From an uncultured Loktanella sp. (GTDB taxonomy: Bacteria > Pseudomonadota > Alphaproteobacteria > Rhodobacterales > Rhodobacteraceae), in contig CAZOMZ010000001.1 in assembly GCA_964581065.1 (NCBI GenBank), positions 1 through 38,759 on the forward strand: a stretch of 38,759 nucleotides of DNA, read 5' to 3'. This document shows, piece after piece, positions 1-38,759 of this stretch (within the stretch, counting starts at the first letter, position 1; each line of letters begins with the position of its first letter). The position numbers and the translations under genes were made by a program. Under the pieces are notes generated by a model. That model was not told the DNA's origin. It saw nothing but the letters and a program-made list of their open reading frames with translations, and made no database searches.

Positions 1-13
1 GACGGTCAAGGCG

Positions 14-2146: not shown

Positions 2147-2166
2147 GGCACAAAACGGAGACATCC

Positions 2167-3063: not shown

Positions 3064-3092
3064 CCCGGCTTGCCGCTGAACGGAGAAAACAA

Positions 3093-3665: not shown

Positions 3666-4702
3666 AGATTCTTGTCACAGGTGGTGCGGGCTTTATCGGA
3701 TCAGCAGTCGTTCGGGCAGCCGTCGCACGCGGCCATCAGGTTGTGAATGTCGATGCGCTGACATATGCCGCCTGTCTTGAAAATGTGGCTTCGGTCGCGG
3801 ACACGGCCGGATATGCCTTTGTCCATGCTGATATCTGCGACAGCGCGGCAATGGCCAAAGTCTTTGCCACCCATACCCCCGACGCCGTGATGCATCTTGC
3901 GGCCGAAAGCCATGTGGACCGGTCCATTGACGGTCCGGGGGCCTTTATCCGGACCAATGTCACCGGCACCTATACCCTGCTCGAAGCCGCGCGGGACTAC
4001 TGGCAGACAATCGGGCGACCTGACACATTCCGGTTTCATCATGTATCTACGGATGAGGTCTATGGCACTCTGGGAGCCGAGGGAAAGTTCACCGAAGACA
4101 CCCCCTATGCCCCCAACAGCCCCTATTCGGCCTCCAAGGCCGCGTCCGACCACCTTGTCCGCGCATGGGGAGAAACCTACGGGCTGCCGGTCGTGATCAC
4201 CAACTGTTCGAATAACTATGGCCCGTTCCATTTTCCCGAAAAGCTGATCCCTGTGGTCATCCTCAACGCACTTTCCGGTGCGCCGATCCCCGTCTATGGC
4301 CGTGGCGAAAACGTGCGCGACTGGCTTTATGTCGAGGATCACGCCGATGCCTTGCTGAAGGTTCTGTCAGAGGGCGCAACAGGCCGGACCTACAACATCG
4401 GCGGTGAGAACGAGGCGCGCAACATCGACATCGTTCGCACGATATGCGCGATCCTTGATCGTCTCAGACCCGCCAAGACACCCTATGCAGAACAGATCAC
4501 CTTTGTCTCCGACCGGCCCGGCCACGACCTGCGCTATGCGATTGATCCGTCGCGGATGCGCGACGAACTGGGCTGGCGGCCTTCGGTCAGTCTGGAACAG
4601 GGGCTGGAGCTGACCGTCCGCTGGTATCTTGAGAACGAAGACTGGTGGCAGGCGCTTCTGGACCGCCAAGGCGTCGGCAAACGTCTGGGATCGGGCGCAT
4701 GA
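3662..4702 (+). CDS. rfbB: dTDP-glucose 4,6-dehydratase
   Basis: Motifs [45 protein letters not shown] and [16 protein letters not shown] overlap with rfbC. Confidence 0.98.
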
Positions 4703-5547
4703 AGGTTCTGGTCTTCGGTGCAACTGGTCAGGTCGCCATGGCGCTGCAGCAGCATGAGGGTGTTACCGCACTGGGCCGCGCTGCCGCCGATCTGACAGAC
4801 CCTGCAGCCTGCGCTGATATCATCGGGTCCTGCGATGCGGATGCGGTTATCAATGCCGCAGCCTATACGGCCGTCGATCAGGCCGAAAGCGATCAGGAGA
4901 CAGCATTTGCCGTCAATGCCGTAGCACCTGCCCGCATGGCCAAAGCGGCGGCGCAGCGCGACATACCGTTTCTGACGATCTCGACGGACTATGTTTTTGA
5001 TGGCGCTGGCACAAAGCCTCACGGGCCGGCTGACAGGATGGCGCCCCTCAACGTCTATGGCAGGTCAAAGGCCGAAGGCGAGGACGGCGTGCGCGCGGCA
5101 GGTGGACGGCATGTCGTGCTGCGGACGTCATGGGTGTTTTCCGAGCATGGGAAGAACTTCGTCAAAACCATGCTTCAGCTAGCCGCGACACGCGATCATC
5201 TGACCATCGTCGACGATCAGATCGGCGGGCCGACCGCCGCGCATGATATCGCGGACACGCTCATGCACATGGCGCGGCAGATGGTCGGTGAAAAAACGAA
5301 CGGCGGCACCTATCATCTGAGCGGCACACCCGATGCAAGCTGGGCAGACTTTGCCCGCGAGATCTTTCGGCAGGCGGGGCACGATGTGCGGGTCTCGCCG
5401 ATTGCGACGGCAGACTACCCGACACCAGCCCAGAGACCGCTTAACTCGAGGCTTGATTGTCAGTCTCTCTTTGACGACTTTGGCATTTCACAGCCCGACT
5501 GGCGGGCCAGCCTGTCACGGGTTCTGACGGCTTTGGGCAAGGGATAG
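4699..5547 (+). CDS. rfbD: dTDP-4-dehydrorhamnose reductase
   Basis: Motifs [47 protein letters not shown] and DQIGGPT. The true start is the ATG at 4699, overlapping the rfbB stop (ATGA). Confidence 0.96.
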
Positions 5548-5551
5548 CAGG

Positions 5552-6418
5552 ATGCAGCGCAAGGGGATCATCTTGGCAGGCGGGTCGGGCACGCGGCTTT
5601 ATCCGATCACGCTTGGCATCTCCAAGCAGCTACTCCCGATCTATGACAAGCCGATGATCTACTATCCGCTGTCCGTCCTGATGCTGACCGGCATTCGCGA
5701 GATTGCGATCATTACCACTCCGCAGGACCAGACCCAGTTCCAGACGCTTCTGGGCGACGGGAGCCAGTGGGGACTGGAGCTTACCTACATCGTACAATCC
5801 AGCCCCGATGGTCTGGCACAGGCCTACTTGCTGGCCGAAGCTTTTCTTGACGGGGCCCCAAGCGCAATGGTGCTGGGTGACAACATCTTTTTTGGTCACG
5901 GCCTGCCCGACGAATTGCAGACCGCAAACAAAAGGGATCAGGGCGGCACGGTCTTTGGTTACCGCGTCAGCGATCCGCATCGCTATGGCATCTTGGGCTT
6001 TGACGCCGAAGGTCGGGTGAATTCCATCGTTGAGAAGCCATCGACACCTGCGTCCCGCTTTGCGGTTACCGGCCTCTATTTCCTTGATGGCAGTGCGCCT
6101 GAACGCGCCAGACAGATCGCGCCTTCGGAACGCGGCGAGCTTGAGATCACAGCCTTGCTGGAAAGCTACCTGCATGAAGGCAATCTACATGTTCAGCAAA
6201 TGGGGCGTGGCTATGCGTGGCTGGATACCGGCACCCATGCGAGCCTGTTGGATGCCGGCAACTTTGTCCGCACGCTGACTGAACGGCAGGGGCAGCAGGT
6301 CGGCAGCCCTGACGAAATCGCCTTTGCGAACGGATGGATCAACGCCGAGCAACTGCGCGCCCGTGCCGCCCGATTTGGCAAGAGCAGCTACGGCGATTAC
6401 CTGCTGGGACTGCTCTAA
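5552..6418 (+). CDS. rfbA: Glucose-1-phosphate thymidylyltransferase
   Basis: Motifs GIILAGGSGTRLYP, SKQLLPIYDKPMIYYPL, LGDNIF, PSERGELEIT and GRGYAWLDTGT. Confidence 0.98.
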   Translation: MQRKGIILAGGSGTRLYPITLGISKQLLPIYDKPMIYYPLSVLMLTGIREIAIITTPQDQTQFQTLLGDGSQWGLELTYIVQSSPDGLAQAYLLAEAFLDGAPSAMVLGDNIFFGHGLPDELQTANKRDQGGTVFGYRVSDPHRYGILGFDAEGRVNSIVEKPSTPASRFAVTGLYFLDGSAPERARQIAPSERGELEITALLESYLHEGNLHVQQMGRGYAWLDTGTHASLLDAGNFVRTLTERQGQQVGSPDEIAFANGWINAEQLRARAARFGKSSYGDYLLGLL

Positions 6419-7431
6419 CTGCCTGCCCCGCTGATCGGTCGCAGGATATCGGCATCGTCGCCGAACTTCGCTTTGTAGGCGGTGGTGAGACCAAGGCATT
6501 CAGTCGATGCGCAATTCGCCTGATGGGGGCACTGGTAGAATCCGTTGCGATCGAATTCGGTCCAGAAGTCAGGGTCGATCACAAGCGTCGGCTGCGCATT
6601 GACAAGCGCATCACCAAGCTCGCCCAACATGCATTCAGGGAAATTCTTGACCTCGACATAGCGGCCCTGCGCGCGGCACTTCAGAATGGCTTCGCGCAGA
6701 TACGGCAGAATATCGCTATGGCGGGCGGCCAGATCTTTGGGATCGTCCTCGGCCATCGGAAAGAAGTTCCAGAACTCCATCTGCGCCAGCCGCTTGAGAT
6801 GGGATAGCGCATCCACCATGCCCGGCAAGAGCATATAGCTTTGCGTTGTAATGACGGAATTGGTGATCAGTTTGACGTGGTCGTATTGGTCCAGATGGGC
6901 CATCCCCGCCATCATCTTGTCCCACGCGCCTTCGACTTGGGTGATCCTGTCGTGGCTTTCGGCATCGCTTCCGGCAACGGAGACAAAGTATTCATCGACC
7001 CCTGCCTCGACCAGCCGGTCCGCGTAGTCCGTGCGGCCAAGATGCATGCCGTGTGTCTGAATGCGAACGTGGCTGAAGCCCGCAGATTTCGCCTTGCGCG
7101 CGATGTCCGGCAGATCACGGCGCAGCGTGATTTCAGAGCCGGTCAGAACAAGGCCCTCCCAACGACCTGTCTGCGATTGATCGCGGCAGATGTCATCAAG
7201 CGTCTTGTCCGAGGTTGGCGCAAGACGGTCCATCGTTCCTTCGATCATGCAATGCACACATTTCAGGTTGCATCTGAACTCCATCGTCAAAGAAACATAC
7301 TTTTCATGATCTCGCAGACTGAGGCCCTTCACACGCTTCAACTGCGACAGCGGCGTCGTCACGCCAACGCGCGTTCCCTCGGTCCCGACCGTTCTCGCGG
7401 GCTGTCGCGGAATGCGTCTAGAGGAGGCCAT
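6415..7431 (-). CDS. Radical SAM enzyme (about 338 aa) with a C-terminal Cys cluster; resembles peptide/protein-modifying maturases
   Basis: CxxxCxxC motif CNLKCVHC at 7249-7272, LTGSEITL (variant GGE motif), IQTHG, VSVAG...HDRIT, NFPECML and C-terminal CPHQANCASTECLG. Start moved from 7659 to the ATG at 7431, which overlaps the upstream gene's stop by 14 nt. Confidence 0.9.
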   Translation of the reverse strand: MASSRRIPRQPARTVGTEGTRVGVTTPLSQLKRVKGLSLRDHEKYVSLTMEFRCNLKCVHCMIEGTMDRLAPTSDKTLDDICRDQSQTGRWEGLVLTGSEITLRRDLPDIARKAKSAGFSHVRIQTHGMHLGRTDYADRLVEAGVDEYFVSVAGSDAESHDRITQVEGAWDKMMAGMAHLDQYDHVKLITNSVITTQSYMLLPGMVDALSHLKRLAQMEFWNFFPMAEDDPKDLAARHSDILPYLREAILKCRAQGRYVEVKNFPECMLGELGDALVNAQPTLVIDPDFWTEFDRNGFYQCPHQANCASTECLGLTTAYKAKFGDDADILRPISGAGS

Positions 7432-8299
7432 AAAAGCTGCCTTTCGTCGGGGTGATTTTGCCATCGATATCGCAATCGAAATCCCAGCCCACATCGTAGA
7501 GGTGGTGGTCAAGCGCATCCATGTTTTCCTGCAGATAATCACGAAGCGGCTCAGGAAAGGAAAGCCGTTCCAGAAAGATCGCCAGTTGCGCGGCGCGTAT
7601 CCGCGAAAAATAGATCGCATCGCGCTGCTGCTTGTTGGCGACAACGACTGTTTCGACACCCGCCATCTCGGGCCAGAGCAGATCGTCCATCCTGACCCTG
7701 TTTGCGGGCAGATAGATGGACTCGGTTAGTTTGTCGTGGATTTCTTTCGCTTCACGCTCGGCATTGAAGAAGAAGTAGAAGTTCCGCATGTGATAGCCCG
7801 CCGCAGACATACCGTAGCAAATGCCCGACGACACGGTGGAACCCGGATTGCCCATGTAGATGTCGATCTGGTCAAGCGGGGTGCCTTGGAGATGCGCCGC
7901 CGAGACCTCGACCGAAAACATGAAGTAGGGCTTTTCGTCATCCGGCGTGAGGTCGCACCGCAGCAATCCCTTTGTGGCATCCAGAAAGTCAGCTACGCCC
8001 AACCTGCGGGCTTCGCGCGCATAGTCGTAAAAGTAGAACTCCCAGCTTGGTCCTGCGTCAGACCACTTCATCCCCCAGACTGTCGCGAACCTGCCCCACC
8101 GATTGCGCAGCGTATCGGTCAGCGCAAGCATCTCTGCGCCCACACCGGCAGCCTCAAAACTCTTGTAAAGCAGGGCAACGCTGCGCAAAGCGTCGTCCGT
8201 GGCGACGCGTGGCGGCGTGTAGGGCCAGATGCAGAAATCCTGCGCGATATCACCGGGGCGGCTGAACTGCGCCGCCGCCTTGGCACCCCAGTCAATCAT
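7418..8299 (-). CDS. Hypothetical protein (293 aa), aromatic-rich, possible ABBA/PT-barrel fold
   Basis: Typical codon usage and ATGA coupling to the upstream gene (8296-8299). Helices alternate with five aromatic beta-hairpins. The ORF is well supported; the fold is inference. Confidence 0.8.
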   Translation of the reverse strand: MIDWGAKAAAQFSRPGDIAQDFCIWPYTPPRVATDDALRSVALLYKSFEAAGVGAEMLALTDTLRNRWGRFATVWGMKWSDAGPSWEFYFYDYAREARRLGVADFLDATKGLLRCDLTPDDEKPYFMFSVEVSAAHLQGTPLDQIDIYMGNPGSTVSSGICYGMSAAGYHMRNFYFFFNAEREAKEIHDKLTESIYLPANRVRMDDLLWPEMAGVETVVVANKQQRDAIYFSRIRAAQLAIFLERLSFPEPLRDYLQENMDALDHHLYDVGWDFDCDIDGKITPTKGSFYGLL

Positions 8300-9027
8300 A
8301 TCGCACGCGCCCCGTAGTAGATCGTCACGAACGTTGCCCCGTCACTGGCTTGGCCAGCGGCAATATGGCCAAAGCGCGCGTTGGCTTGTTCGTCAAGGAA
8401 TGGGCGCAGATCGCAGCCGTGGAACGCCTTAAGCGGCAGAAGAATTTCGGTTGCGTCCCGCAAACTGGCTTTTGCATCGGCAACCGAGATATCGACCGAT
8501 GCGCGGGCAGATCCGTCTTCGGTCACATGAAGAACGACAGCCTGCCCGTCGGGATCGCCGTCACGGGCAAGATCGAGGCTTCGCTGCATGACGTCCGCCA
8601 CCACCGGATCAGGCACAAGCCTCCGCACCAAAGCTGCTTTGTCGGCATGCGGTCGCGCAGACACGGCGACATAGCGGTTCAGTCGCTGCGCATCTCCGCG
8701 CCATTTCAAAGCGAGAAAAACAAGGTCCGGCTCGGGCGCATCTTGGGGCGCGAACTCAAGATAGCATTTACCGATATCACCATCGGCACCAAAGTGGACA
8801 GCACAGGCCTGCGACAAGAACGGTTCGAGTGGCATGGGGTCCGGGCAACCAAGAGCGGCGCAAACATCGCGTAGCGTCGATTTTGGACCGGGATAGAGCG
8901 CGCGCTTGTCCATACTGACCAGACCCCTCTCGGTCGAGATGCGACCACGGGACAGCTTTGCGGATCGCTCGAAGATACGGGGCGCTTCCAGTGTCTCTGT
9001 GGCAGACAAAAGACGCGCAACGCTCAT
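8296..9027 (-). CDS. Hypothetical protein (243 aa), possible ABBA/PT-barrel fold
   Basis: The ATG at 9027 has GGAAGG upstream and lies 1 nt after the MFP stop (9029-9031), so the ORF-track extension to 9207 is rejected. Five-hairpin pattern including HFGADGDIGKCYLEF. Confidence 0.78.
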   Translation of the reverse strand: MSVARLLSATETLEAPRIFERSAKLSRGRISTERGLVSMDKRALYPGPKSTLRDVCAALGCPDPMPLEPFLSQACAVHFGADGDIGKCYLEFAPQDAPEPDLVFLALKWRGDAQRLNRYVAVSARPHADKAALVRRLVPDPVVADVMQRSLDLARDGDPDGQAVVLHVTEDGSARASVDISVADAKASLRDATEILLPLKAFHGCDLRPFLDEQANARFGHIAAGQASDGATFVTIYYGARAI

Positions 9028-9028
9028 G

Positions 9029-9850
9029 TCAGCCTTCCGCTGGAAAGGACAGGATGCAGCGGTGACCCGCGGGCAATGCCCCATCAGGGTTTGGCAGTTC
9101 GAGCTCAACGCCAAACGTGCCGGACGCGGCATCGAAGACCTGATCGAAGGCAATGACGCGTGCTTCGAATGTCTCGGTAATCGGGGCGGCAGGCGCAATT
9201 GTTGCACGCATGCCGTTGATGATTTCGGGGTAAAGCTCGACCGGCAGGAAGGCTTCGATCAACAACGGATCCAGTTTCACGATCGTCACGATGGATCCGT
9301 TTGACGCGACAAACTCGCCGCCGGATAGATTGCGGGTAAGGATGACGCCGTCGATGGGGCTTTTGATGGTACGCTGGGCAAGTTGCTGCCGCGCGCGCGC
9401 CAGTTCCTGCTGGGCGATATCGCGATCAAGGTTGGCCTGGGCCAGCAATGCCTCTGCCGCAACCAATTCCGCCTCGGCTTCCTGTAGCTGCTCGGCCGAG
9501 GCCACGTTGCGATCGACCAGAGTTTTGATCCGCTCGCGCTGAAGCTGGATCAACTCCAGTCGCGCGGTCTGAGCTTCAATGGCCACCGTGTTGTTTGCGC
9601 GCGTCTCAAGCAAGCCAATCGTGGCCATTTCGACGCTGCTTTCCAGTTCGGCAATGACTTGCCCGCGCGAGACAGCCTCGCCCCGCCGGACCTTTACCTC
9701 GGCCAGAATTCCGGCGACCGGAGCGCCAACGTCAATCACGCTGGCGGGATCCATGACGCAGTCAAACGTCTCTCCGCCCAGCCCTTCGGCTATTGCAGGG
9801 ACGGCCGACAGCCCCAGCAGCGACGAGATCACGAGAAAGGCAAAACGCAT
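9029..9850 (-). CDS. Efflux RND/HlyD-family periplasmic adaptor (MFP) with signal peptide
   Basis: Signal peptide MRFAFLVISSLLGLSAVPAIA. Lipoyl half-motifs GAPVAGILAEVKVRRGEAVSRGQVIAEL and IKSPIDGVI flank a coiled coil. The beta-barrel ends with ELPNPDGALPAG. Confidence 0.9.
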   Translation of the reverse strand: MRFAFLVISSLLGLSAVPAIAEGLGGETFDCVMDPASVIDVGAPVAGILAEVKVRRGEAVSRGQVIAELESSVEMATIGLLETRANNTVAIEAQTARLELIQLQRERIKTLVDRNVASAEQLQEAEAELVAAEALLAQANLDRDIAQQELARARQQLAQRTIKSPIDGVILTRNLSGGEFVASNGSIVTIVKLDPLLIEAFLPVELYPEIINGMRATIAPAAPITETFEARVIAFDQVFDAASGTFGVELELPNPDGALPAGHRCILSFPAEG

Positions 9851-9885
9851 GTATGACTCCGGTCAGATGACGTGGTGAAACTAGC

Positions 9886-11907
9886 CTATTCAAGCTGGCC
9901 TGAAAACGCCATCAAATCACCCAGTTCGCGGTCTTGTTTCATCAGATCGCGGCGGGCCTGCGCATGCGTCGCCTCGGTAACACGCTGGCGGTTGCGGATG
10001 ACGCTGCCGATTGCCCGGGTGCCGAGAAATAGCGAGAGCACATAAGCAAGCCGTCTCGCCCCTGCAGCATCAGGTCCTTGCATCAGATCATCCTCAAGAC
10101 TGAGGTAGGCTTCGTTCCAGCCTGGCTCGCCCTGTCGGCCGCAACGCCCCTCCAGCTGCCGGTCGACACGGCGACTGTCATGGCGTTCGGTCAGGATAAC
10201 GGTCAGACCGCCCAACGCAGCGACACCTTCACCCAGTTTGATGTCAGTGCCCCGACCGGCCATGTTCGTCGCCACAGTGATCGCGCCACGCTGTCCGGCC
10301 AATGACACAATCGCTGCTTCATCCGCGTCCTGATCCGCCGACAGGGTCTGATGTGGCAGACCCGCCTCGGTCAGGCGCTTGCTGGCTTCCTGAGACGCAA
10401 GGATCGAGCGTGTGCCGATCAGCACAGGCTGCCCCTTTGCGTGAAGCTGTGCAACACGCTTGGCAATCGCACGCCATTTGGCATCTGCAGTCCGGAAGAC
10501 ACGGTCACGTTTGCTGCGCCGGATGTCGCGCTTGTTTGTCGGGATCTTGGCCACGGCGAGCTTGTAGACAGTCCACAACTCCCATGCGGCATCCTGCGCT
10601 GTGCCGGTCATTCCGCCAATGCGCGCATAACGCCGGAAAAAGCGTTGGTATGTCATCCGCGAGAGTGTTTCGTTCGTCGGCGAAATCTCGAGACCTTCCT
10701 TCAGTTCGACCATTTGGTGCAAACCGTCCGACCATGTGCGGTCGGGCATGGTGCGCCCTGTGTTTTCATCGACGATCTGCACCTTGTCATCCTTGACGAT
10801 ATAATGGTCGCCCAAATGAAACAGATAGAGCGCATTCAGCGCCTGCTGCACAGTGTGATCGCGGATCACTGGGATCGAGAATGTATCGGTCCGGCCCTCG
10901 GTGAGTTCTTCGAGATAGTCATATCCCGCCTCGAGTATCTCGACCCGTTTGATCCCGCGCGGCAGTTTGAAGTGCAGGTTTTCGACCAGTCTTTTGGCGA
11001 CTTCCATCCCGCTTTCAAACACCTCGTTGGGCATTCCGCCTTCCAATGCCGCCGCGCCCGAGATGATCAGTGGCGTCCGCGCCTCGTCGATCAGGACGCT
11101 GTCGGCCTCATCAATGATCGCGAAGGGCAGCCCCTGCATCCGCAAGGGTTCGGTCGGGCCACCATCGGGGATCAGCCGGTCGACCTTGCGGCGCAGATTG
11201 CCCGGCGCACGACGTAGAATCGCACGGTCCCGCAGATAGTCAAAGGCCAGTTCCTTGTTTGTGCCGTAGACGATTTCTTGCAGATAGGCCAACTGGCGGG
11301 TCGGCCCGTCCTGCCCTTCAAGAACAGTCGCCCGTGTCAGACCCAGAAAATCATAGAGCGGGCCGGTTTCCTCGGCGTCGCGCTCGGCTAGATAGTCGTT
11401 AACGGTCATCACATGGACCTGACGGCCTGACAAGGCGACAGTCGCAACAGCAAGTGTTGCGCAAAGTGTCTTGCCCTCGCCGGTCCGCATCTCGGCAATC
11501 TGGCCCTTGAGCATCGACCATGCCCCGAGGATCTGGACGTCGTAGTGACGCTTGCCAAGCACCCGCGTTGCGACTTCGCGGATCAGGGCAAAGGATTCCC
11601 CTGCCGCAGCGGTCGGCAACTTCTGGCCGCGCAGGCTTTGGCGAAGATTAACGCGGACCCCGCGGACACAGGCCTTGAGTTCGGCGTCGCTCATCGCGGC
11701 AAAGCGTTTCTCGTGGCGGCGGACGGCCCAGAGGATTGGCCGCAGCATCAGCGCCCTGCCACGCGCCCCCTGCGCGATATAGGCACCCTGCAACCACGCC
11801 CAAGCGCGATCCAGCTCTGTCTCGTCCCGATCCGCCGCTTCGGCGTAATCGACGATGCGCGGTAGCCTCAGGCGACGGGCCGGTTTGCTGACCCAAAGAT
11901 CAGACAC
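9886..11907 (-). CDS. Secondary SecA-like DEAD ATPase (673 aa, C-terminally truncated paralog)
   Basis: Motifs MRTGEGKT, TVNDYLAERD, GTNKELAFDYLRD, IIDEADSVLIDEARTPLIISG, GMTGTA, ATNMAGRGTDI and RRVDRQLEGRCGRQGEPG. The GTG start overlaps the upstream stop by 8 nt. Confidence 0.92.
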   Translation of the reverse strand: MSDLWVSKPARRLRLPRIVDYAEAADRDETELDRAWAWLQGAYIAQGARGRALMLRPILWAVRRHEKRFAAMSDAELKACVRGVRVNLRQSLRGQKLPTAAAGESFALIREVATRVLGKRHYDVQILGAWSMLKGQIAEMRTGEGKTLCATLAVATVALSGRQVHVMTVNDYLAERDAEETGPLYDFLGLTRATVLEGQDGPTRQLAYLQEIVYGTNKELAFDYLRDRAILRRAPGNLRRKVDRLIPDGGPTEPLRMQGLPFAIIDEADSVLIDEARTPLIISGAAALEGGMPNEVFESGMEVAKRLVENLHFKLPRGIKRVEILEAGYDYLEELTEGRTDTFSIPVIRDHTVQQALNALYLFHLGDHYIVKDDKVQIVDENTGRTMPDRTWSDGLHQMVELKEGLEISPTNETLSRMTYQRFFRRYARIGGMTGTAQDAAWELWTVYKLAVAKIPTNKRDIRRSKRDRVFRTADAKWRAIAKRVAQLHAKGQPVLIGTRSILASQEASKRLTEAGLPHQTLSADQDADEAAIVSLAGQRGAITVATNMAGRGTDIKLGEGVAALGGLTVILTERHDSRRVDRQLEGRCGRQGEPGWNEAYLSLEDDLMQGPDAAGARRLAYVLSLFLGTRAIGSVIRNRQRVTEATHAQARRDLMKQDRELGDLMAFSGQLE

Positions 11908-14047
11908 GGAACTGCCTCAGGAAAAGCTGTCGGAGACCACGATAGAGCCTGTACCCGATTGGTTCGAAGCCGTGATCGAATTTCACAAGCGCACGTGCTC
12001 CGACGCGGGTGACAGGCATGGGATCAATCGTTGCAATCTCGAACTGGAAGACGCTCTGAAGCGTTGAAAGCTCGCTGCGGCCGGTCGGGTCAAGAACGAT
12101 ATCGCCACCGGCTTGCGTTGACAGTGCCAGCGACGGAACCGTGTCCTGCGATTGCGGCACTTCGACGACCAGCCGCCCCGGCACTTCGGTGCCGATGGCA
12201 TCCTGAAACATGATCTGCACATTCTCGGTCCGGTTGCGCACAATCTCGGCCTGCCCTTGCGGAATGGCCACGCGCAGGCGCATGTCGTCATCACCGATCA
12301 GATAGCCCAGCACCTCGCCCTGCCGCACAAGACGGCCCGCCATGCTTTCGGCGTCAGGCACAACGACGAGACCCTCGGCCTTTGCCTGCACAACAAGGTC
12401 CTGCTGTCGCTGGCGCAGACTGGCAAGCTGGTCTTCGATCAGTCCAACGCGATCGCGGAGCAACTGCGCCTGCACCTGATCAACAAGCAGGATCGCTCGA
12501 AGGCGCAGCTGGGCTTCGCGCAACTGGCTTTCGAGAATGGTAATCCTGTTTTCAAGTACCGGATCCTGCATCGTCACGACGGGTGTTCCGGGCTGCGCCG
12601 GAGCTCCTGTCGGCAGGTTGACCTCCGATACAAAACCCTCAGTGCCCGCCCGGACGATGGCGTTCTGATCCAGCCAAACCACACCATGCGCAACTGTTGC
12701 ATAGGGCGCGGGCAAACTGAAAAGCAAAGCCGCCACACCCGAGAATGCGGCAAAGACAGCAGCCATTGCACGCCCGCGTTTCAGCCGCAGCTCGGGGCTG
12801 GTCACCATATACTTGATGCCCTTGAAAAGCGGCTGCACAAAGGTGTTGAACAGTGCCCAGAGCGCCAGAATAACGCCGATGAAAAAGAACTTTGACGCCA
12901 CAAAAAGCGCAATCGCGAAGCTGATGAACATCCGGTAGATGAATGCGGCGATTGCATAGGTGAAAAGCCACTTGCGTTCACCCTTTGCGGTCACCCCGTC
13001 AGGCACGTCCTTGACCCGAAAGACGTAGGTGCGGATCAGATAGAAGATATAGGCATTCGACCGCTGCCCCAGATTGGGGATTTCGATCAGATCGGAAAAG
13101 ACAAAGTAGCCGTCAAAGCGCAACAGCGGGTTGCCGTTGAACAAGAGCGTCGAGATCCCCCCGATCAGCATGACGTTGAAGGCAAAGGCGCGGACCAGCC
13201 CCGGTTCGACGTTGAGCCAGACAATCAGGGCAAGTGCAGCAAGCGCCGTTTCGACCATGATGCCCGCACCACCAACAACGGCGCGCCGCCATTTGCTGTC
13301 AAACGCGGCCGATGACGACGCATCCACATAAGGCACCGGAATGAAAACAAGGAACATGACCCCGATTTCATGGACTTCGCCGCCCCAGACCTTTGCCGCA
13401 TATCCGTGGCCAAGTTCATGGAGTGCTTTCACAAAGGGATAAGCGAGCGCGATCAGAAGCAGGTTCTCTGCGGCCAGCACCTGATCCACAAACCCTTCTG
13501 TCAGAACGTTCCAGTTCAATGCGGCCAGACCGATGCCTGACAGGACGAGTGTCAGCCATGCGACAAAGCCCGCGGGCGTGAAGAGAAACCTGACGAGATG
13601 GACGGTCGCACCCAGAAACGGGTCGGGATCAAAAAGCGGCAGGCGCAGGGCCATCGGGTTCTTGATCCGTGCGATCATCGTCTGCCGTTCTTGCTTGGCA
13701 TGACGGCGACCGATTTCCTCCATGTCGGGGGGCAGGTCACTGGCGATCAGGTCTGACCGGTGCAGCTGGCTCATCAACCGGATGGTTTCCGACTGCGTCG
13801 GCGGATCGTCCTCGAAGCGACGGCAAGCGGCTTCCCATATCTGGTGCATCGTCCGCTGGCCGTTCATCAGCGCGATGATGTAATTCGCCGCAGGCGTAAT
13901 CCGGTGATACTTGCCACTATGCTGGTCTTGCAGCACGAACCACGTGTCGCCCCGATACCGCTGCCGGTGCACTTCCACATGTCCGCGCAGCCGCGGCTTA
14001 AGAGGGGCAACGCGGTACCAGTCAGATGAGAGCAGCGCGCGGTTCAT
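11900..14047 (-). CDS. Fusion protein: PqqD/RRE-like N-terminal domain + M50 (site-2) zinc metallopeptidase + HlyD-like MFP domain
   Basis: HELGH at 13406-13420 and NGNPLLRFDG at about 13109-13138, both within multiple hydrophobic TM segments. The N-terminus has a three-strand/three-helix pattern and the C-terminus a lipoyl/coiled-coil MFP. The ATG at 14047 has a GAGGTG RBS. Confidence 0.85.
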   Translation of the reverse strand: MNRALLSSDWYRVAPLKPRLRGHVEVHRQRYRGDTWFVLQDQHSGKYHRITPAANYIIALMNGQRTMHQIWEAACRRFEDDPPTQSETIRLMSQLHRSDLIASDLPPDMEEIGRRHAKQERQTMIARIKNPMALRLPLFDPDPFLGATVHLVRFLFTPAGFVAWLTLVLSGIGLAALNWNVLTEGFVDQVLAAENLLLIALAYPFVKALHELGHGYAAKVWGGEVHEIGVMFLVFIPVPYVDASSSAAFDSKWRRAVVGGAGIMVETALAALALIVWLNVEPGLVRAFAFNVMLIGGISTLLFNGNPLLRFDGYFVFSDLIEIPNLGQRSNAYIFYLIRTYVFRVKDVPDGVTAKGERKWLFTYAIAAFIYRMFISFAIALFVASKFFFIGVILALWALFNTFVQPLFKGIKYMVTSPELRLKRGRAMAAVFAAFSGVAALLFSLPAPYATVAHGVVWLDQNAIVRAGTEGFVSEVNLPTGAPAQPGTPVVTMQDPVLENRITILESQLREAQLRLRAILLVDQVQAQLLRDRVGLIEDQLASLRQRQQDLVVQAKAEGLVVVPDAESMAGRLVRQGEVLGYLIGDDDMRLRVAIPQGQAEIVRNRTENVQIMFQDAIGTEVPGRLVVEVPQSQDTVPSLALSTQAGGDIVLDPTGRSELSTLQSVFQFEIATIDPMPVTRVGARALVKFDHGFEPIGYRLYRGLRQLFLRQFRV

Positions 14048-14057
14048 TGCGTCACCT

Positions 14058-15974
14058 CTAGCTCGGGATCCAGCGCCAAAGCGCGATCCGCGCCCAGTCG
14101 ACAAGAGGCTTGGTCCAGATCGCAATCAATCGGCGTTCCTCGACCTCGATCCGCGCCGCGCCCTGCATCCCCGGCCGCAAGGCCACAACATCACCCTGAA
14201 AGCGCGCCTCGACCTCAAAGGTTGTGGCACCCTCGGCATAGGTTGCAACGGGGGTGATCTTTTCTATGGCGACAGTGAAGGTCTGGTCAGGCAGCGCGGT
14301 CACCCGCAAGGCACCAGTCTGCCCGGGTTTCAGATCCGCGATCTGTCGTTCGTCAACCTGCAGGATCACACGGTAGGCGTCCGCCGGTGCAATCGTCAGC
14401 AGCGCCTCACCGCGCGAGACGGCCGATCCAATGGATTGACTGAGATCGCCCGACACCACGAGACCGTCAAAAGGTGCAACCAGTCGGGTGCGGCTTAGCT
14501 GTTCATCGAGCAACCCGATCTCGGCATCTGCCTGATCGATGAGCGTCTGGCGGATGTTCATCTCGGCCCTGTCGCGGGCCGCAACCGCACGATCGAATTC
14601 GATCTGCTGGCGCTGGCGCTGGTTGACCAGACGCAGCCTTTCAAGGCTGAGGTCACGGTCGTCGAGTTGCACCAGAAGATCGCCTTCGGCGACAAGATCG
14701 CCTGCACGCACAGGTGCGGCCGCGATAAACGCATCAAAGCCCGGTACGATTGCGCGCTCGACCGTCCCGACAACACGCGCCTCGGCGCCGACCTCATATG
14801 TGCTGCGCGCAAACCAGAAAAAGACGGTGGCGGCAATGAGGGTCGCCATGATCAGCTTGCGCACCAGATGTGACGGCCCGAGAAGCCGTTTGATCTGCCC
14901 CAGCAGGCTGTCACCCATCTTGGTGATCAGCCAGCGATCATTGCGGCGTTTTTCGTCAAGGATTGGCGCAAGGACCGTCGTAACGGCCTCAAGCACGTCC
15001 AACTGGCGTTCGTCGAAAGGAAGTTCCTTTGGCCTTTCAAACGTCAGCGCACCGATAAACGCGCCGTTCGAATAAAGCGGGACAGTATAGACATGCCCTG
15101 CACCATGATCGCGGGCGAGGGCTGCGGCGGCATGGGTCGCAAAGACCACCTCTGCATCATCGTCCGGCCAGAGCACCGCAGCACGCTGGTCAATCGCCTC
15201 ATCCATCGCGGCATTCAGTCGCCCGACAAGTTCCATCCGCTTGGAGAACTGCGCCTGATGCGAGATAGCGCGGACACGGCTGCGCCTGAAACGCCGCATA
15301 CCGAGCGATACGCGATCACATTCAAAGCGGGTGGCGAGGTCCGTGACAGCAGCGCTGGCGGCCGCCATGAATTCCTCGCGTTCCGCCACCACGATGATCG
15401 TATTCAATGCCTCGACAGCGGCCGAGTAGCGGATTTCCTCTTTCTGGTGCTCTTCTTCGCGCAGCACGTCGCGCAGCCATGCCGCACCCCATTGCAGGCG
15501 GCGCATGGCCCAACGCATGTCGGTCTGTTTGACGGGGCGCATCTCGATGACGACAACGCCCACCGGCACATCCCGCACGATCAATGGGGCCGCAGCGGCC
15601 ATCGGGCTATTTGCAGCAGGGCCATCGGGTCCCGGCATCTCGCCTTTTGCGACCGGGCGCCCGTTTTCGACGGCTGCTTGCGCGGCTTCGACCGTCAGCG
15701 CCGACCCTACGCGGTTGCGTGGGCTGCTGCCGATCGGTGTCAGTTGACGCGATGGCTGGTCATAGCGAAATGCAAAAAGTGCGAGCGGCTGGACGCCGGC
15801 ATGTTCGTCCATCTGGGCATGCATCAGCTCGACCCAGCTTTGCCCCTGTTTTCGGATGTCGCCCTGCTCTGCAAGGGCGCGCCAGAGTGCCGCCTGTCCG
15901 GTCGGCACAGAGGCAAGTTTTTCGGCATCGGTTGTCTGCGTCTGAATCAGGGGGTCCTGATTTTCAGCTGTCAT
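14058..15974 (-). CDS. HlyD-family membrane fusion protein with N-terminal GAF-like domain(s)
   Basis: GAF-like segments (AAAPLIVRDVPVGVVVIE; YTVPLYSNGAFIGALTFER), one TM (LIMATLIAATVFFWFA), then the MFP motifs VRAGDLVAEGDLLVQLDDRDL, coiled coil, LVAPFDGLVVSGDL and LRPGMQG. Confidence 0.85.
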   Translation of the reverse strand: MTAENQDPLIQTQTTDAEKLASVPTGQAALWRALAEQGDIRKQGQSWVELMHAQMDEHAGVQPLALFAFRYDQPSRQLTPIGSSPRNRVGSALTVEAAQAAVENGRPVAKGEMPGPDGPAANSPMAAAAPLIVRDVPVGVVVIEMRPVKQTDMRWAMRRLQWGAAWLRDVLREEEHQKEEIRYSAAVEALNTIIVVAEREEFMAAASAAVTDLATRFECDRVSLGMRRFRRSRVRAISHQAQFSKRMELVGRLNAAMDEAIDQRAAVLWPDDDAEVVFATHAAAALARDHGAGHVYTVPLYSNGAFIGALTFERPKELPFDERQLDVLEAVTTVLAPILDEKRRNDRWLITKMGDSLLGQIKRLLGPSHLVRKLIMATLIAATVFFWFARSTYEVGAEARVVGTVERAIVPGFDAFIAAAPVRAGDLVAEGDLLVQLDDRDLSLERLRLVNQRQRQQIEFDRAVAARDRAEMNIRQTLIDQADAEIGLLDEQLSRTRLVAPFDGLVVSGDLSQSIGSAVSRGEALLTIAPADAYRVILQVDERQIADLKPGQTGALRVTALPDQTFTVAIEKITPVATYAEGATTFEVEARFQGDVVALRPGMQGAARIEVEERRLIAIWTKPLVDWARIALWRWIPS

Positions 15975-16297
15975 TTGCCTTCGTCCGTCTTCAGAACGCC
16001 GTGCCGCGCTTCGTATTCGGCAAGGACTTTTGTCAGGATCGTGTTCAGCCGCTTGGCCGCATAAGGTGTCAGGATCATCCGGTTGGTGAGGTCAACCTTC
16101 ACTTCGCTGTCACTGGCAAGGTTCCACGACCGGTGGGTGCCAAAGAACAGTTCGACCTGTTCGCGCGTCCCCTGAATATTGACCACATTGGCAAAGCCTG
16201 TGGTCATATTGCTGTCATTCCATTGGATACCGGCCCGGTGCTGCCCCGGTTCGAGGGCGGGATTCATCCCGCCCTGTTTGCTTGCGTCATCGGCCAT
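15971..16297 (-). CDS. DUF3467-like small protein
   Basis: 108 aa with the pattern FANVVNIQGTREQVELFFG...RMILTPYAAKRL...Y E.RHG, recalled as typical of DUF3467. ATGA overlap with the downstream MFP gene. Confidence 0.75.
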   Translation of the reverse strand: MADDASKQGGMNPALEPGQHRAGIQWNDSNMTTGFANVVNIQGTREQVELFFGTHRSWNLASDSEVKVDLTNRMILTPYAAKRLNTILTKVLAEYEARHGVLKTDEGK

Positions 16298-16311
16298 AGG
16301 ACCCGCCTGTC

Positions 16312-31300: not shown

Positions 31301-34300
31301 ACAGTGCCGGTCAGCGTGAGGATCAGATTTCCGTTCTGGTCTGTCGTTTCACCGATCAGAAGTTCCAGTTCACGCCGCGCGCCGGTCTTGATTAGACCGT
31401 CATTGATAATCTGCGAACGCGCATCCGACAGACCTTCGCCCGGACCGGTCGAATTATCGGTGCCGCCTGTCAGGCTGTTGATGCCGTCGGTGACAGCGGT
31501 GGTCCAGTTTGTGCCCTTTGCCATCCCGATGACCGAGGCCAGACCAAGCTCGTCCGCGTTCAGATCGATGTTGAGGAAGCTTTCAATCAAGGTCGGATCG
31601 GCGGTGGATGTCGGCGCATCGACCTTGATCAGGTTGCGCACGATGTAGATTGCCTGTGTCTCCAGATCGTCGATCGGGATCGCGGAACCGGCAAAGTTGT
31701 CGACACGGGCTTCGAGACTGCTGTCCTCGATGGTCAGGTCACGGTCGGTACCGGCCGAGAGGAACATGTCGCGGTGCGACAGCAGGTCTGCACCAGCCTT
31801 GATGTGGATCGTATTGCGCGGCTGGATGTCGATATGGGCACTACCAAGTGCGACCGTCGCGGCACCGTAGGTTTCCGAATAGGACTGAATATAGACATTG
31901 AATTTGCCCGAGGCCTCGAAGTCGAGTTCGCCCTTGGCTTCGATATCTGCGCGTTCGCCGACGATGATGTTGGCGGTGATCGGAACCGAAACACCATTTT
32001 CACGTTCGTTGAAGGTGACATAGGCACCGGCGCCGGACAGCGCTCCGGCTGTTTCCAGCCGGATCTTGTCTGAATAGGCAATTTCGTTGAATGCCCGCGC
32101 GGCCAGATCGCCTTGCGGGTCTGTTGTGTCGATATCCGTATCAGCGTCGAACGTGATCGTCGTGTTCATCTGGGCGCGTGTATCGCTGGTGGCGCTTGCG
32201 CCAGAGGCAATACCGCCCGTCTCACCCTCGATGTCGTTTGTCGAAGAGTTCGGCCGGATCAGCTTGTTGTTCGCCTTGATGTCCATTTCTCCGGCCTCTG
32301 CTTTTGCAAAGCGTCCGAATTCGACATCAACGGTTGAGTTGATGGTATTGTTGGCCGCGGCACCTGCACCGGCGATTGCGCCGTAAGATTCCGTGACGAC
32401 ACTTGTATCAACCTTGGAGAGCTGGCTTGCGGTCACACGCAACAGGCCCGCGACGTCAAGCTCGCCACGGTTCGTCGTGCTTGTCCCGTCGGCCATGCCC
32501 GCGCGGATCACCGCAGTGGTCGACGTCCTTGGCGCAGCAGCAGCACCCGAGGCGAGGCCATAGGCACCCGTTTCGGTGCGCGCGTCATTATCGCTAAAGC
32601 CCGCGGCAGAAACGGTCATCGTGTCGGCGGTGACATCCGTCCCCACTCCGATCAGAGCGGAAACATTCGTGTTGCTTGTTGCGTTTGCAACAGCGGCACC
32701 CACACCAATGAGCCCGACGCTCGCCGCTTTGGAGAAGCCGACCTGGCGGACATTGGAGAAGGCATTCATCGTAAAGCTGCCCGCAGTGATGGTTGCACCA
32801 TTCCCCACGGTCGCCGCTACCACGTCAGTGTTCGACACTGTGACACTTGTCGAGTTCGAACCAAGCAGCAGACCGCCGCCCGAGGCCTTCGCCGTAGCAT
32901 TGGCCAGATACCCGCCCGCAGGATTGGCGTCAGAACCGGCTTCGGCCACCAATGTCCCGACAGTGATGCTGCCGGTATTGCTGCCAATCTGCATACCGAC
33001 GCGCGCACCGGTGTTGATCGTTGCGTCGCTCACGCCTACTGCGGCGGTCGATGCAACGGTGACCCCCTCGACGTTCGCAACAGTCTTGATCAACGACTGG
33101 GCGTTGACCTCAAGCCGGTTTGCATCCAGATCGACGCCGCCGACATTCGCCGTGACGCTATTCTGGTTTGCATCCGCACGGGTATTGATCCGCGCCACCG
33201 AACCGCTCGCTGCAAGCCCGAACGCGCCGGCCGCAACACTCAGAACCTGCACCTCTGCATCAAGATCAGCACGGTTTGTTGCTTCAACCTTAACTGTCCC
33301 TGCGACGTTGATACGATCCGCATTTCCGGTTCCGGAAATCGCGGCCAGCACGGTGCTTGTGGAGTTGATCTCGGCCAGAGCACCACCGCCCGAAAGCGCA
33401 CCGCCGACCCCGATGGCTGCCGAGACCGCGGCAGCACGTGCCTCGACGTCGACTTCTGTATCGTCAGACGCAGTGATGGTCAGGTTTCCGGCCGTGACAT
33501 CCGACCGGTTGACTGTGGCGGAAATCGTATTGTCGACACTGTTCTGCGCTGTCGAGACTGCCACAGCACCCGCGTAGGCCGTGACACCGGCCGCAACAGC
33601 CACCGCAGCAGAAGCGACGGTTGCATCAATCGTTGCATCGTCGCGTGCCTGAACGCTCACTGAGCCACCAGCGTTGAGGCTGGCGTTATCGACTTCGGTC
33701 ATGACCGAATAGCTCGTGCTGTTGACTGCAAATGCACCCGCACCTGCGCCAGCGACACCGACAAAGCCACCTGCCAGAGCGACCGAGAAGCTGCCGACGA
33801 ATGCATCGATCCGCGACATCATGTTGGCACTGACGATGATGTTATTGCTTGCCGTCAGAGAGGCGCCCGAGACGCGGGCAAAGACACCGTCATTGCTGCT
33901 CGTCTCCGAGCCGATGACGTTCTTTGCATAAGACGTACCGACCGAAACGCCGACACCCGCAACGGCACCTACACCAAGCGACACCGTAGCCGAGATAATG
34001 GACGCGTCGATGTTTGCATTGCTCGTCGCTCTGACATTGATGTCTTGCGGCGTCGGTGTGCCGGCGACCAGTTCGGGCACCTGAATGACGGTCACAGGCT
34101 GCGTCGTCCCCGTCGTGGCGGGATCGATCAGGAAGACCGAAGGCAACCCAGCGTTGTCGGTTGTGGGGTCTTCGAATGTGATGACGGTGTAGACGTCCTC
34201 GACGGTGTTTGCATTCGGGGTCTGGACGACCAGCCCTGTCGACGTATCAAGGTAACGTGTCACCTGTGTGCTGGTGTATTTGTATTCCTTGAGCGCCTGT

Positions 34301-37300
34301 GCGTCCGCAGCCGTGCTGGCCGTGTAGGCCGGATCACCGGCTGTCGTCGGTCCGGTCACCAACATATAAGCCAGTTCCTGACCAACAACCGCACCGCTTT
34401 CCGCATCGATGACCGGCCGCGTGATCGGGTTGCCGGTCACTGGATCACGGGCAATCGTGTAGGCGCCTGCATATGCAGATTTCAGCGCCCCGCTTTCGTC
34501 AAAGATCTGGCTGCCAGGTGCAGTCGTCGCGCTGACCATATTGCCTGAAGGCACCAGAGTCGTCGCAGAATTCGCTACGATCGTTGCGCCTACAACTTCG
34601 GACACAACGCGGTTTGTAATGTTGTTGTAGGCCAGCGCCCCTGCACCGGAAACCGCTCCGTTGCCACCAAATCCACCCGAAAGCGAGATCGATGCCGCTG
34701 CTGAAATGACGCGGATGCTGGCCTCATCCTTGGCATCAACTGACACATTGCCAGCAGTCGCGATCAAGCTGCCTGTGCTGGCGGTGGATACTTCATTCAC
34801 ATTGGCGGTAATTGTCCGGGAAATCGTGTTAGCCGCAACAGATGCGGCCAACGAGACAGAGGCCCCGATCAAGCCGCCGAAGGACAGCGTCAGCGAGACC
34901 GCAGCCGCGATCGCCTCGATCGATGAGGTATCCATTGCCTCTACGGTGACGGTGCCTGCGGTGACATTTGAATTGCCCAGCGTGATCGTGGCAGATGATC
35001 CGCCAAAGATGAAGTTCTCGGCAAAGACACCGGACCCACCGTAGGAGCCTGCCGAACCACCGGCCGAAATCGCCGCGGCCCCTGCAAAGACAAGCGAATT
35101 GATGACGTTGTCGGATGTCGCCTTGACGTCCAGCGCCGTTCCTGTGGTCACATTGCTGTTTGTGATCGTCGCTTTGGTCTGACCATAGTTTGCTGTGTTG
35201 GTGGCGTTGGATGGCGTCGCACCGATGTAGTTCTGTGCAACCGATACACCAAGAGCCAGACCAAAGCCGCCGCCGCCGACACCGACCGCGAGTGCTGTCG
35301 AAAGCACGGCCGAGTTGATGACCGACTGGCTATCGGCAAGCACCTTGATTGCGCCCGTATTAGCCGTAACTGTCGCGCCGTCGATCTTGGCCTCGACGTT
35401 GCTGAGGATCACGTTCTGGCCGAATGCACCCGCACCTGCGACCGAGTACGCGCCCGTGCCGACGCTGGCGGCAATCGACATCGCGCCGGACAGTGCGCTG
35501 ATCGTCACACGTTCCGCGACGAAGGCATTGCTGGTGTTACGTGCGATATTCCACGTCGTCCCTGCTGCATCGACCACAACCCAGCGGCTGCCATCTTCGA
35601 TGACGCTGATACGCAGTGGACCCTCAACATCATAGTGAGCGCTAAGTGCCGTCGCCAGTTTCGACAGTGTGTCATTGTCGTCGTTTACGTCTTGGGTGAC
35701 CGCGACCTCGACTTCTTTGTCGTCGTCATTGGTCTGCGTCGTCATTTCGGTGCCAGCGGCATCATCCAGCGCGATAGAGGTTGCCAGAGATGAACCGATG
35801 CTGGTCAGGTCGAGTGTCTTCTCGGCATTCTGTGTTCCCGCACCTGCGCGCACTAAGATGCTGTCACCCGCGACTGCCGAGGTGGCAACGACAGAAGCAT
35901 TGTTGTCGATCTTGGCGGTTACCGCGTTCTCGACCTGGTTGAAGGCCAGCGAAACACCGATCGAGACGGCACTCCCGACTGATCCAGCCGCGAAAGACAA
36001 TGCGCCTGCAAGGCTTGTCGCATTGATCGAGCTTTCGTCGTCAGCCTGAACAATGACCGTTCCAGCGCTTACGCCAGTTGACAGTTTACCGCTGATGCTC
36101 GCGTTGGGGTTGGTTGCAATACGGTTCGAGACTCCGGAGCCCGAGGCCGAGATGCCGAACGCGACACCGCCAACGGCAAGGGCGGCTGCAACCGACAAGG
36201 ATGCTGCATTGATCTTCTGATCGCTTTGCGCATCGACCTTCAGCAAACCGGATGTCGTGATATCACTGCCACTGACAGCGGCCGTGATGGCTGCTGCGTT
36301 CTTTTGCAGGTCGATCTCTTCCCAGAGCTCCGGGTTGTTGAAGTCAACCGATTTCAGCGGCACACGATCTGCCGTTGTGATATCGCCGTCTTCGTTCGTG
36401 TCGATATTAGGAGTCAGCCCGCTCTCGCCGATGTAGCGGAATGCACGGCCTGCGTTAATACCTTCGAGAACCCGCACAGTATCACCGTTGGTCAGCTCAC
36501 CCGAGTCAACCGTGTCATCGGTTGTACGGGGCATCCACTGATTGCCGTAGGTGTAGCCGATCATGTTCGACACAAAGGATGCACCGACACCGACGCCAAC
36601 ACCGACGCCACCGACGGCCAACGACAGCGCGGACGCCGCGTTGATCGCATCAATCCGACCATCCGAGGTGGCCAGAACGCTGACGTTGCCTTGTGTTGCG
36701 GTCACGAGTGATCCGTCGATGGTGGCAGAGACACCTGCACCAATCCGGTTAAAGGCCAATGCGCCCGCAAGCGCGACGCCGACGCTGACCAGACCTCCGG
36801 CCACCGCAAGGCTGGCTGCCGCGCTAACGGCGCGGATGTTGGACGTATCTGTGGCCTGCACTGTCACGTCGCCGGATCTTGCCTGCACGCCACCCTGGCT
36901 TGAATTCAGGATCTGCGCCTGTGTCAGCCCATCAATTTCATTCCGCGCAACGGTTGCACCCATCGAGACAGCAACGCCAACCTTGCCCAGCGCAGCCGCG
37001 ACCGAGACTGTCGCCGCAACGGCATTGATCTGCGATGTATTCAGCGCTGTGACTTCGACATTATCGCCGCGCACGGCGGCCACTGTTGTATCGTCAACAT
37101 CGCCGATGATCCGTGCCGACGTTGTGCTTGCGATGCTGTTCTCGACGTAGACGCCAGAGCCAGAGACGGCGACGCCGATCTTGCCGGCTGCGATGGCCAC
37201 ACCACCCGCAAAAACAAGCGAGTTGATGGAATTGTCCGAGGTCGCACGCACAATCACATCGTCAGCCGCGTTGATCGCGCTATCGGTGATGGTGGCATAG

Positions 37301-38759: not shown

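Follow-up and report, generated by a model that had tools for sequence, protein, structure and literature searches.

The locus described here raises the question of how a giant repeat protein leaves the cell when the genes beside it encode three MFP adaptors and no ABC ATPase. RTX proteins and giant adhesins are normally secreted by type I systems of the HlyB-HlyD-TolC kind, in which MFP adaptors and TolC serve a repeat-rich cargo, and in peptidase-containing ABC transporters a C39 domain couples removal of an N-terminal leader to export. The window, by which we mean the whole stretch of DNA analyzed, runs from base 1 to base 38,759 of a contig (C1) of 58,088 nt, which belongs to a genome that is 53% complete at 2.25 Mb. 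ORF calls combined with Pfam and NCBIfam profiles place nine genes on its minus strand, from position 6415 to 38759 (Table 1). The first-pass annotation had described nine co-oriented genes with overlapping or near-abutting junctions, and three MFP domains with no ABC ATPase among them; both descriptions hold, the junctions having been measured and the window and the rest of the contig being free of HlyB/PrtD-type ABC genes.

Table 1. Coordinates of the nine minus-strand genes and the matches or models on which their descriptions rest.
Feature	Position in window	Strand	Evidence
Giant LEPR-XLL protein, C-terminal ~7,480 aa	16312..38759, open at window end	-	RTX PF00353, LktA_tand_53 NF012206
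DUF3467 protein, 108 aa, candidate adaptor	15971..16297	-	PF11950 E 2.8e-17
GAF domain (aa 206-336) + one hydrophobic helix (~370-388) + HlyD-type periplasmic adaptor	14058..15974	-	
RRE (PqqD-like) + M50 site-2 protease + HlyD-type adaptor, ATG start	11900..14047	-	PF05402, PF02163, NF041824
Secondary SecA, 673 aa	9886..11907	-	SecA_DEAD, PP_bind, P-loop; SecA_SW unmatched
Stand-alone MFP, N-terminal hydrophobic signal or anchor	9029..9850	-	TIGR01730 141.5 bits, cut-off 94.9
u1, 243 aa, probable ABBA prenyltransferase-barrel protein	8296..9027	-	Atlas lead, strand residues, fusions
u2, 293 aa, predicted ABBA prenyltransferase-barrel fold	7418..8299	-	AF2 model, Foldseek, VIA
Radical SAM enzyme (CNLKCVHC; C-terminal Cx5Cx4CxG)	6415..7431	-	PF04055

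Measured with starts inferred with the help of homologs, a 14-nt gap separates the giant gene from the DUF3467 gene, which overlaps the GAF-HlyD gene by 4 nt; the latter is followed after 10 nt by the M50 fusion gene, which overlaps the secA gene by 8 nt. The SecA/free MFP and MFP/u1 junctions are gaps of 35 nt and 1 nt, and the u1/u2 and u2/radical SAM junctions are overlaps of 4 nt and 14 nt, respectively. The gene order is kept in relatives and hence does not reflect chance. The SecA paralog shares 79-84% identity with proteins of Yoonia and Loktanella, which makes a marine Rhodobacteraceae genome probable. In contigs from four public DNA runs, 24-30 of the 30 bins into which the locus was divided are covered, a measure of presence only, and among the public sequencing runs no RNA run is listed as carrying it. 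The plus strand at window positions 1-6418 carries a set of rhamnose and glycosyltransferase genes (Glycosyltransferase 61, a hydrolase, GT2 and rmlCBDA), which is convergent with the radical SAM gene, overlaps it by 4 nt and is not kept as a neighbor of the module in the mapped loci.

The ORF of the giant stays open for 7,481 codons up to the end of the window, where a run of 100 N begins. Beyond the window, in the upstream direction, come two open stretches of 2,940 aa and 741 aa and then a start of 60 aa; two more N runs separate them, so that three 100-N runs cross the gene. Two observations point to a single gene encoding more than 11,200 aa: these stretches align in order with the uninterrupted giants in G075, G137 and G215 (36-52% identity), and the sequences on either side of the first N run share an overlap of 31 nt. 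Its start, an ATG at C1:50290, carries the LEPR-XLL leader (NF012209, 26.4 bits; cut-off 17) that the first-pass annotation had predicted for the N-terminus once the contig was extended. RTX repeats (PF00353) are matched in 10 stretches and include 24 GGxGxDxL nonamers at window-frame aa 4807-7114, and LktA-type tandem repeats (LktA_tand_53, NF012206, 204 bits; cut-off 50) occupy the first, N-terminal half of the protein.

Across 40 related leaders, the consensus is a basic region followed by [ED]x[LMIF]EPRxLL[SAN]xD, with a mean net charge of +4.6 and no hydrophobic core; the E, R, L and D of the motif are invariant in 41 leaders. Among 14 giants whose loci lack the enzyme cassette described below, 5 have no GGxGxDxL repeats yet still carry the leader, which identifies the leader, and not an RTX C-terminus, as the signal that all of them share. 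As judged from these sequences, its retention favors a dedicated export route.

The distribution of the leader follows that of the RRE-M50-MFP fusion. A search of 400 genomes of the family with this fusion matched 46, of which 7 were set aside because of low identity (24-29%) and a match start at residue 20-130, leaving the module in 39 genomes. LEPR-XLL leaders were found in 32 genomes, all 32 of them within the 39 and none in the other 361; the seven module genomes without a LEPR match are all fragmented assemblies (100-640 contigs). The number of LEPR proteins equals the number of modules in each of the nine genomes that have two or three modules, and for 35 of the 42 LEPR matches a module is found on the same contig, no more than about 60 kb away. 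The pattern is exact, although kin among these genomes are not independent and the family counts therefore overstate it. We regard a dedicated pairing of cargo and machine as very likely.

The module itself was compared in 56 loci, picked by M50 or SecA and at most 22 kb each. M50 and GAF-MFP genes are present in all 56, SecA in 55, the free MFP in 38, DUF3467 in 27 and SapC in 19, which bears out the expectation of the first-pass annotation that the core would be co-conserved. Pairwise identities of M50, GAF-MFP and SecA correlate across 50 loci (rho 0.78-0.94), as expected for co-inheritance. In six loci (L131, L132, L134, L135, L136 and L137) the SapC gene lies between the M50 and SecA genes, a placement suggesting that SapC has a function within the machine. 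In a variant without u1 or u2 (L062:13740-19099, L069:6470-11022 and L071:11770-15965), SecA is followed by an IalB-like protein and by a protein of 950-1,400 aa that has no assigned identity, and these in turn by MFP and radical SAM genes in convergent orientation. A SecA-seeded genome scan gave 80 loci, 53 of which had no module gene and were dropped as canonical SecA.

Within the M50 fusion, the membrane domain has about six hydrophobic helices and both sets of zinc ligands, HExxH (HELGH at aa 210-214) and NxxPxxxxDG (NPLLRFD312). Residues H210, E211, H214 and D312 are invariant in all 54 sequences compared, and the Pfam score of the domain (26.5) falls just below the cut-off of 27.2. The PqqD-like N-terminal domain (RRE, PF05402) scores above its Pfam cut-off. 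The best NCBIfam match of the fusion is NF041824 daptide_HExxH, with an E value of 1.4e-41 and a score of 143 against a cut-off of 300.

The SecA paralog retains Walker A (GEGKT), DEADS, motifs III, V and VI and the preprotein-binding domain. Its alignment to Bacillus subtilis SecA ends at residue 601 (of 780-841), and SecA_SW has no match, in line with the first-pass description of a truncated SecA. The region past this end we take to comprise the wing and the two-helix finger. The finger of SecA is thought to push substrate, and the wing/scaffold region engages SecY. The paralog ends in a conserved C-terminal tail of nearly fixed length. Walker A and DEAD are intact in 54 of 56 SecA rows (the query and one duplicate locus counted). 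The protease and ATPase motifs that the first-pass annotation had named as targets for mutation are intact in the window. In the remaining two rows, L142 (L142:7682-9484) and L147 (L147:10526-12136), all SecA ATPase motifs are lost and the C-terminal tail is kept, beside an intact M50 gene and a 4,700-5,400-aa LEPR protein. ATP hydrolysis may hence not always be needed, which weakens a strict motor role.

DUF3467 is a looser member of the module, missing from 29 of the 56 loci and found without the module in other alphaproteobacteria. In 13 ORFs from other taxa it is fused N-terminally to u1, with Pfam confirming five of six tested; no longer DUF3467 fusion was scored in the protein collection, a null that carries little weight because fusions were found in the loci. 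A single-sequence model is poor (pLDDT 44) and gives no Foldseek match at E 0.001, and a profile comparison with the PDB gives no match either. A resemblance of this protein to SecB would be conjecture.

On these observations of gene content, motifs, fold and co-occurrence, from which we infer every functional step that follows, the locus is probably a leader-guided, dedicated exporter for the LEPR-XLL giant, with a co-inherited cassette that acts on the cargo or on an associated small molecule. The cytoplasmic RRE would bind the leader motif, as RiPP RREs bind leaders, and M50 would remove the leader, as described for the daptide RRE-peptidase MpaP; on balance we expect that M50 does make this cut. 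The wingless SecA, with its motor and clamp domains, would push or ratchet the unfolded chain N-terminus first, docked on the machine by its conserved tail, and the chances that it is the main energizer appear even. The entry at the inner membrane would be built from the membrane parts of GAF-MFP and of the M50 fusion, and the M50 fusion may, tentatively, be the pore. The three MFPs would then bridge to TolC, encoded elsewhere in the genome and in some cases inside the locus, and the RTX and LktA-type repeats would fold outside the cell. The cassette enzymes would tailor the giant or make an associated aromatic compound.

The cassette includes u1 and u2, neither of which has a Pfam or NCBIfam match; u2 has no sequence match in the PDB. 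The AF2 model of u2 (pLDDT 96.4) matches AmbP1 in Foldseek (E 3.6e-7) and FgaPT2 in VIA (Z 12.8, rmsd 4.1, 245 residues aligned), where the top 19 rows are all ABBA prenyltransferases; as modeled, u2 is an ABBA prenyltransferase (PT) barrel. The PT-barrel fold and conserved Lys, Arg and Tyr strand residues are shared with FgaPT2/DMATS, NphB/AmbP1 and PagF/PatF/DciF, whereas identity to known ABBA prenyltransferases is 7-14% and the u1/u2 pair and the fusions to DUF3467 or radical SAM are particular to the present family. The conserved residues of u2 (K78, Y89, Y148, Y175, K223, Y230, R233, K286 and Y290) are compatible with prenyl-diphosphate-dependent transfer. The u2 family comprises 412 unannotated clusters at E 1e-10. 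We consider u1 probably a PT-barrel protein as well, given its conserved R/K/Y strand residues, its fusions to DUF3467 and to u2, and, as a lead only, its Atlas similarity (features 0.96) to a cluster in which 11% of the members carry PF11468; a comparison of the u1 and u2 profiles shows no similarity. The u1 of the window (8296-9027) is missing at least one Arg that more than 80% of 62 family members conserve, and it may be drifting. The radical SAM protein has HxsC4 as its best NCBIfam match, far below the cut-off.

Three further associated genes lie upstream of the giant, encoding a methyltransferase, a P-loop kinase-like protein and SapC (C1:55645-56487). Together with u1, u2 and the radical SAM gene they make up a cassette that is found again next to LEPR giants of distant taxa. 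The O-methyltransferase-like and kinase-like genes (G000:C1:50458-51980; L001:11959-13481, minus strand) sit immediately 5' of the giant, so that the cassette brackets its gene; the methyltransferase is directly upstream of the giant in all five other full-cassette genomes checked and the kinase-like gene in four of them. The region around SapC (G000:C1:52180-57327) also holds an FG-GAP/RTX protein, a lipoprotein-like gene and an outer-membrane beta-barrel gene, and FG-GAP and beta-barrel genes resembling these flank the cassette in L010, L012 and L124.

Among the 400 family genomes, u2 occurs in seven, all of which have the module, and 10 of the 56 module loci contain it. On the M50 tree the cassette appears in two separate parts. 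A search with the u2 profile gave 80 metagenome loci, many of them short, in which the neighbors are radical SAM (55), u1 (52), methyltransferase (43), kinase-like (18), SapC (14), LEPR giant (13), SecA (9), GAF-MFP (8), Trp halogenase (8) and M50 (7). Of the 26 loci that reach at least 9 kb, 16 carry SecA, M50, GAF-MFP or LEPR, a number that rises to 18 with NCBIfam LEPR matches, and 5 have no module marker. Fusions join u1 to u2 in six and radical SAM to u2 in four of 15 long matches among the best 150. Methyltransf_2, Trp halogenase and kinase-like proteins are among the partners, B12 radical SAM, WelO5-like and TPR proteins are occasional ones, and one protein of 1,031 aa (P0309) combines an N-terminal B12 radical SAM-like region, a second radical SAM domain and u2. 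A LEPR giant ending in part of u2 (P0260) was treated as a likely assembly chimera. The link that the first-pass annotation had drawn between its enzyme trio and the export system is thus upheld by the confinement of u2 to module genomes among the 400, by the fusions and by the conserved neighbors. Its further claim, that the trio makes this a modify-cleave-export pathway, fares less well: the trio belongs to a larger, optional cassette whose substrate could be the giant or a small molecule.

Modification of the giant before export falls, in our judgment, slightly short of an even chance. An aromatic insert, Y-x-Y-x-G...DL...D[YF]...W, is present in four copies in the giant of the window and in 2-7 copies in all six cassette-bearing giants of the family; of 14 giants without the cassette, one has it, in a single copy. 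This comparison is confounded by kinship and was made with a pattern derived from the window's own giant. LktA-type repeats likewise go with the cassette by enrichment and not exclusively, being above cut-off in 8 of 12 metagenome cassette giants and also in four cassette-less giants (3-8 copies). The idea that the cassette modifies a conserved leader residue was discarded: the cassette-bearing leaders share no modifiable residue, and leaders starting with M[AS]xPF are found both in loci that have the cassette and in loci that lack it.

The strongest alternative keeps the export model and concerns the cassette alone, which could make a small prenylated, methylated and sometimes halogenated aromatic compound in place of a protein modification. 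Such a compound might be co-regulated with the giant, carried by it or sensed for it through the GAF domain, so that this alternative overlaps our preferred explanation. The fold of u2 is nearest to small-molecule indole prenyltransferases (Z 11.7-12.8), ahead of the peptide enzymes PagF (10.8), PatF (10.4) and DciF (10.0), and the O-methyltransferase, Trp halogenase and WelO5-like partners are typical small-molecule enzymes; B12 radical SAM and kinase-like proteins are further partners. The long u2 loci without a module marker and the leaders without a shared target residue point the same way. However, a module gene, DUF3467, is fused to u1, the cassette genes lie on both sides of the giant gene, the aromatic insert tracks the cassette within the family (with the same caveat of kinship), and the neighbors included neither a conserved small precursor nor an exporter for small molecules. 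We consider synthesis of such a compound a real possibility, at roughly one part in three of our belief by verbal estimate.

A second alternative denies the module the role of exporter. In this case a type I ABC transporter encoded elsewhere, of the PrtD or HlyB kind, would export the giant by its RTX C-terminus, and the module would chaperone, process or retain it. Full-length HlyB/PrtD-type ABC genes are absent from the 56 module loci and the 80 metagenome loci as well as from the contig, on which TolC has no match either. The genome nevertheless has ordinary type I systems, with a PrtD-type ABC on C18 (C18:3416-16552) and a HlyB-like ABC with TolC and HlyD on C34 (C34:5384-10226). An ordinary type I ABC is found in 38 of the 39 module genomes, and in one of 10 further regions checked it lies about 8 kb upstream of a giant, that of G075. 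Genomes alone hence cannot prove independence from an ABC transporter. The RTX nonamers of the giant resemble those of type I cargo, and the export model of a Chlorobium preprint runs through TolC, SapC and HlyD (bioRxiv 10.64898/2026.03.19.712371).

Against a type I route stand the giants that have no GGxGxDxL repeats, the RTX neighbors of its own that the C18 ABC has, and G270, a 99% complete genome with the module and no PrtD-type match at E 1e-90 among the 27 of 158 candidates scored. Nor does this alternative account for the three dedicated MFP domains or for the pairing of each giant with one module, and we judge it improbable. As for the claim of the first-pass annotation that SecA replaces the ABC ATPase and that M50 and the MFPs form the conduit, the intact motifs and the 56 loci without a type I ABC speak for it, whereas the ABCs elsewhere in the genomes, the two ATPase-dead SecA paralogs and the missing finger and wing leave it only partly sustained. 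The extension to the rest of the contig that it had proposed for tolC and ABC genes turned up neither, the ABCs lying elsewhere in the genome. TolC-type (OEP) proteins are encoded on C13 and C34, TolC is present in all 39 module genomes, and TolC-type genes adjoin giants in G095, G207, G269 and seven metagenome loci; in L160 a TolC-type gene lies inside the module. An Omp85-domain gene lies close downstream of the module on the opposite strand in L157, L158, L159 and L160.

Least probable, by a little, is a two-step route in which the SecA paralog targets the giant to SecYEG, M50 acts as leader peptidase and the MFPs work with TolC or Omp85 at the outer membrane: the retained preprotein-binding domain, the Omp85-domain genes beside 4 of 56 loci and the ATPase-dead paralogs, which fit a targeting role, are outweighed by a basic leader (mean +4.6, 40 leaders) without a hydrophobic core, by the loss of the wing/scaffold region that presumably engages SecY, and by the fusion of two MFPs to proteins of the inner membrane, an arrangement in keeping with a continuous conduit.

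The dedicated exporter that we prefer has a precedent in print. A secondary SecA_DEAD/T1SS-related locus was described computationally by Kamneva, Poudel and Ward in 2015 (PMC4452313); the first-pass annotation, too, mentions such SecA proteins as noted by comparative genomics beside T1SS-related MFPs and M50 peptidases. As here, their locus combines a SecA without SecA_SW, M50-HlyD, GAF-HlyD and HlyD with no ABC; OEP is sometimes present, and SapC, which is also near here, is their cluster 4. Their unnamed cluster 5 may be DUF3467. The same paper already proposes SecA as supplier of ATP and M50 as pore, whereas in the parts covered it names no cargo, LEPR-XLL leader, RRE, DUF3467 or enzyme cassette. 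By its gene content, the present locus is a member of this computationally described, uncharacterized export locus with an undescribed cassette, and what goes beyond the 2015 account is the LEPR-XLL leader on the giant, the pairing of leader and module, the RRE and the PT-fold cassette. The leader-module link and the cassette were not found described in the literature covered, which lies largely outside subscription journals and includes supplements in part, and no mechanistic test of a SecA/M50/MFP export locus was found in it. The only experimental datum that we found on such a system, in the parts of the sources available, comes from R. pomeroyi, where the fitness of a 'secA2' mutant (SPO2713) changed by -0.42 (log2) in one co-culture (PMC10041152, Table 3); SPO2713 adjoins module genes listed by Kamneva (PMC4452313). 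The available parts of PMC8277102 and PMC3482391 hold nothing relevant to the locus.

With canonical type I and peptidase-containing ABC systems the locus shares MFP adaptors, repeat-rich cargo and a TolC available in the genome, and it differs in its three different MFPs, its SecA-type ATPase with no ABC in the locus, its N-terminal signal and its RRE-bearing site-2 metalloprotease instead of C39. The accessory Sec pathway (SecA2/SecY2) is set apart by the missing SecA wing/scaffold and by the absence of secY from the window; all SecA2 models score below cut-off, and the C-terminal domains of SecA are absent from the paralog. In the daptide protein MpaP an RRE is fused N-terminally to a site-2 protease and the leader motif is ELExMEAP (bioRxiv 10.1101/2023.03.08.531785). 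That fusion and a short LExxxxP-like motif are common to both systems, whereas here an MFP is fused in addition and the substrate would exceed 11,000 aa where that of MpaP is a short peptide. The closest cargo in print is in Chlorobium chlorochromatii, where Cag_663 and Cag_665 have the LEPRxLL leader, LktA-like repeats and adjacent tolC and sapC, are transcribed along their full length and are accompanied by a note of a recently acquired secA (bioRxiv 10.64898/2026.03.19.712371). Its authors model export through TolC, SapC and HlyD together with autotransport, and M50 is absent from the main text. Wingless SecA domains have also been reported inside other giant proteins (West-Roberts 2023).

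The locus bears on how bacteria export proteins of 8,000-36,000 residues; some of the largest proteins known, Cag_663 among them, are LEPR-XLL giants. Through the one-to-one link of leader and module, a signal, a peptidase and a motor are identified as separate targets for mutation, in 39 of 400 genomes, about a tenth of those of this marine family. A SecA-type ATPase powering a tripartite exporter would, if true, be a new class of energizer, and action of the cassette on the giant would mean that RiPP logic reaches megadalton surface proteins. The fullest version of the scheme, which we hold to be unlikely as a whole, is a RiPP-like assembly line in which LEPR-XLL recruits the RRE and the giant is decorated by DUF3467-linked PT-fold, radical SAM, methyltransferase and halogenase enzymes. 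An ABC-less machine of M50, SecA and three adaptors would then cut the giant and export it through TolC. If true, it would be both a new type of secretion system and new protein chemistry.
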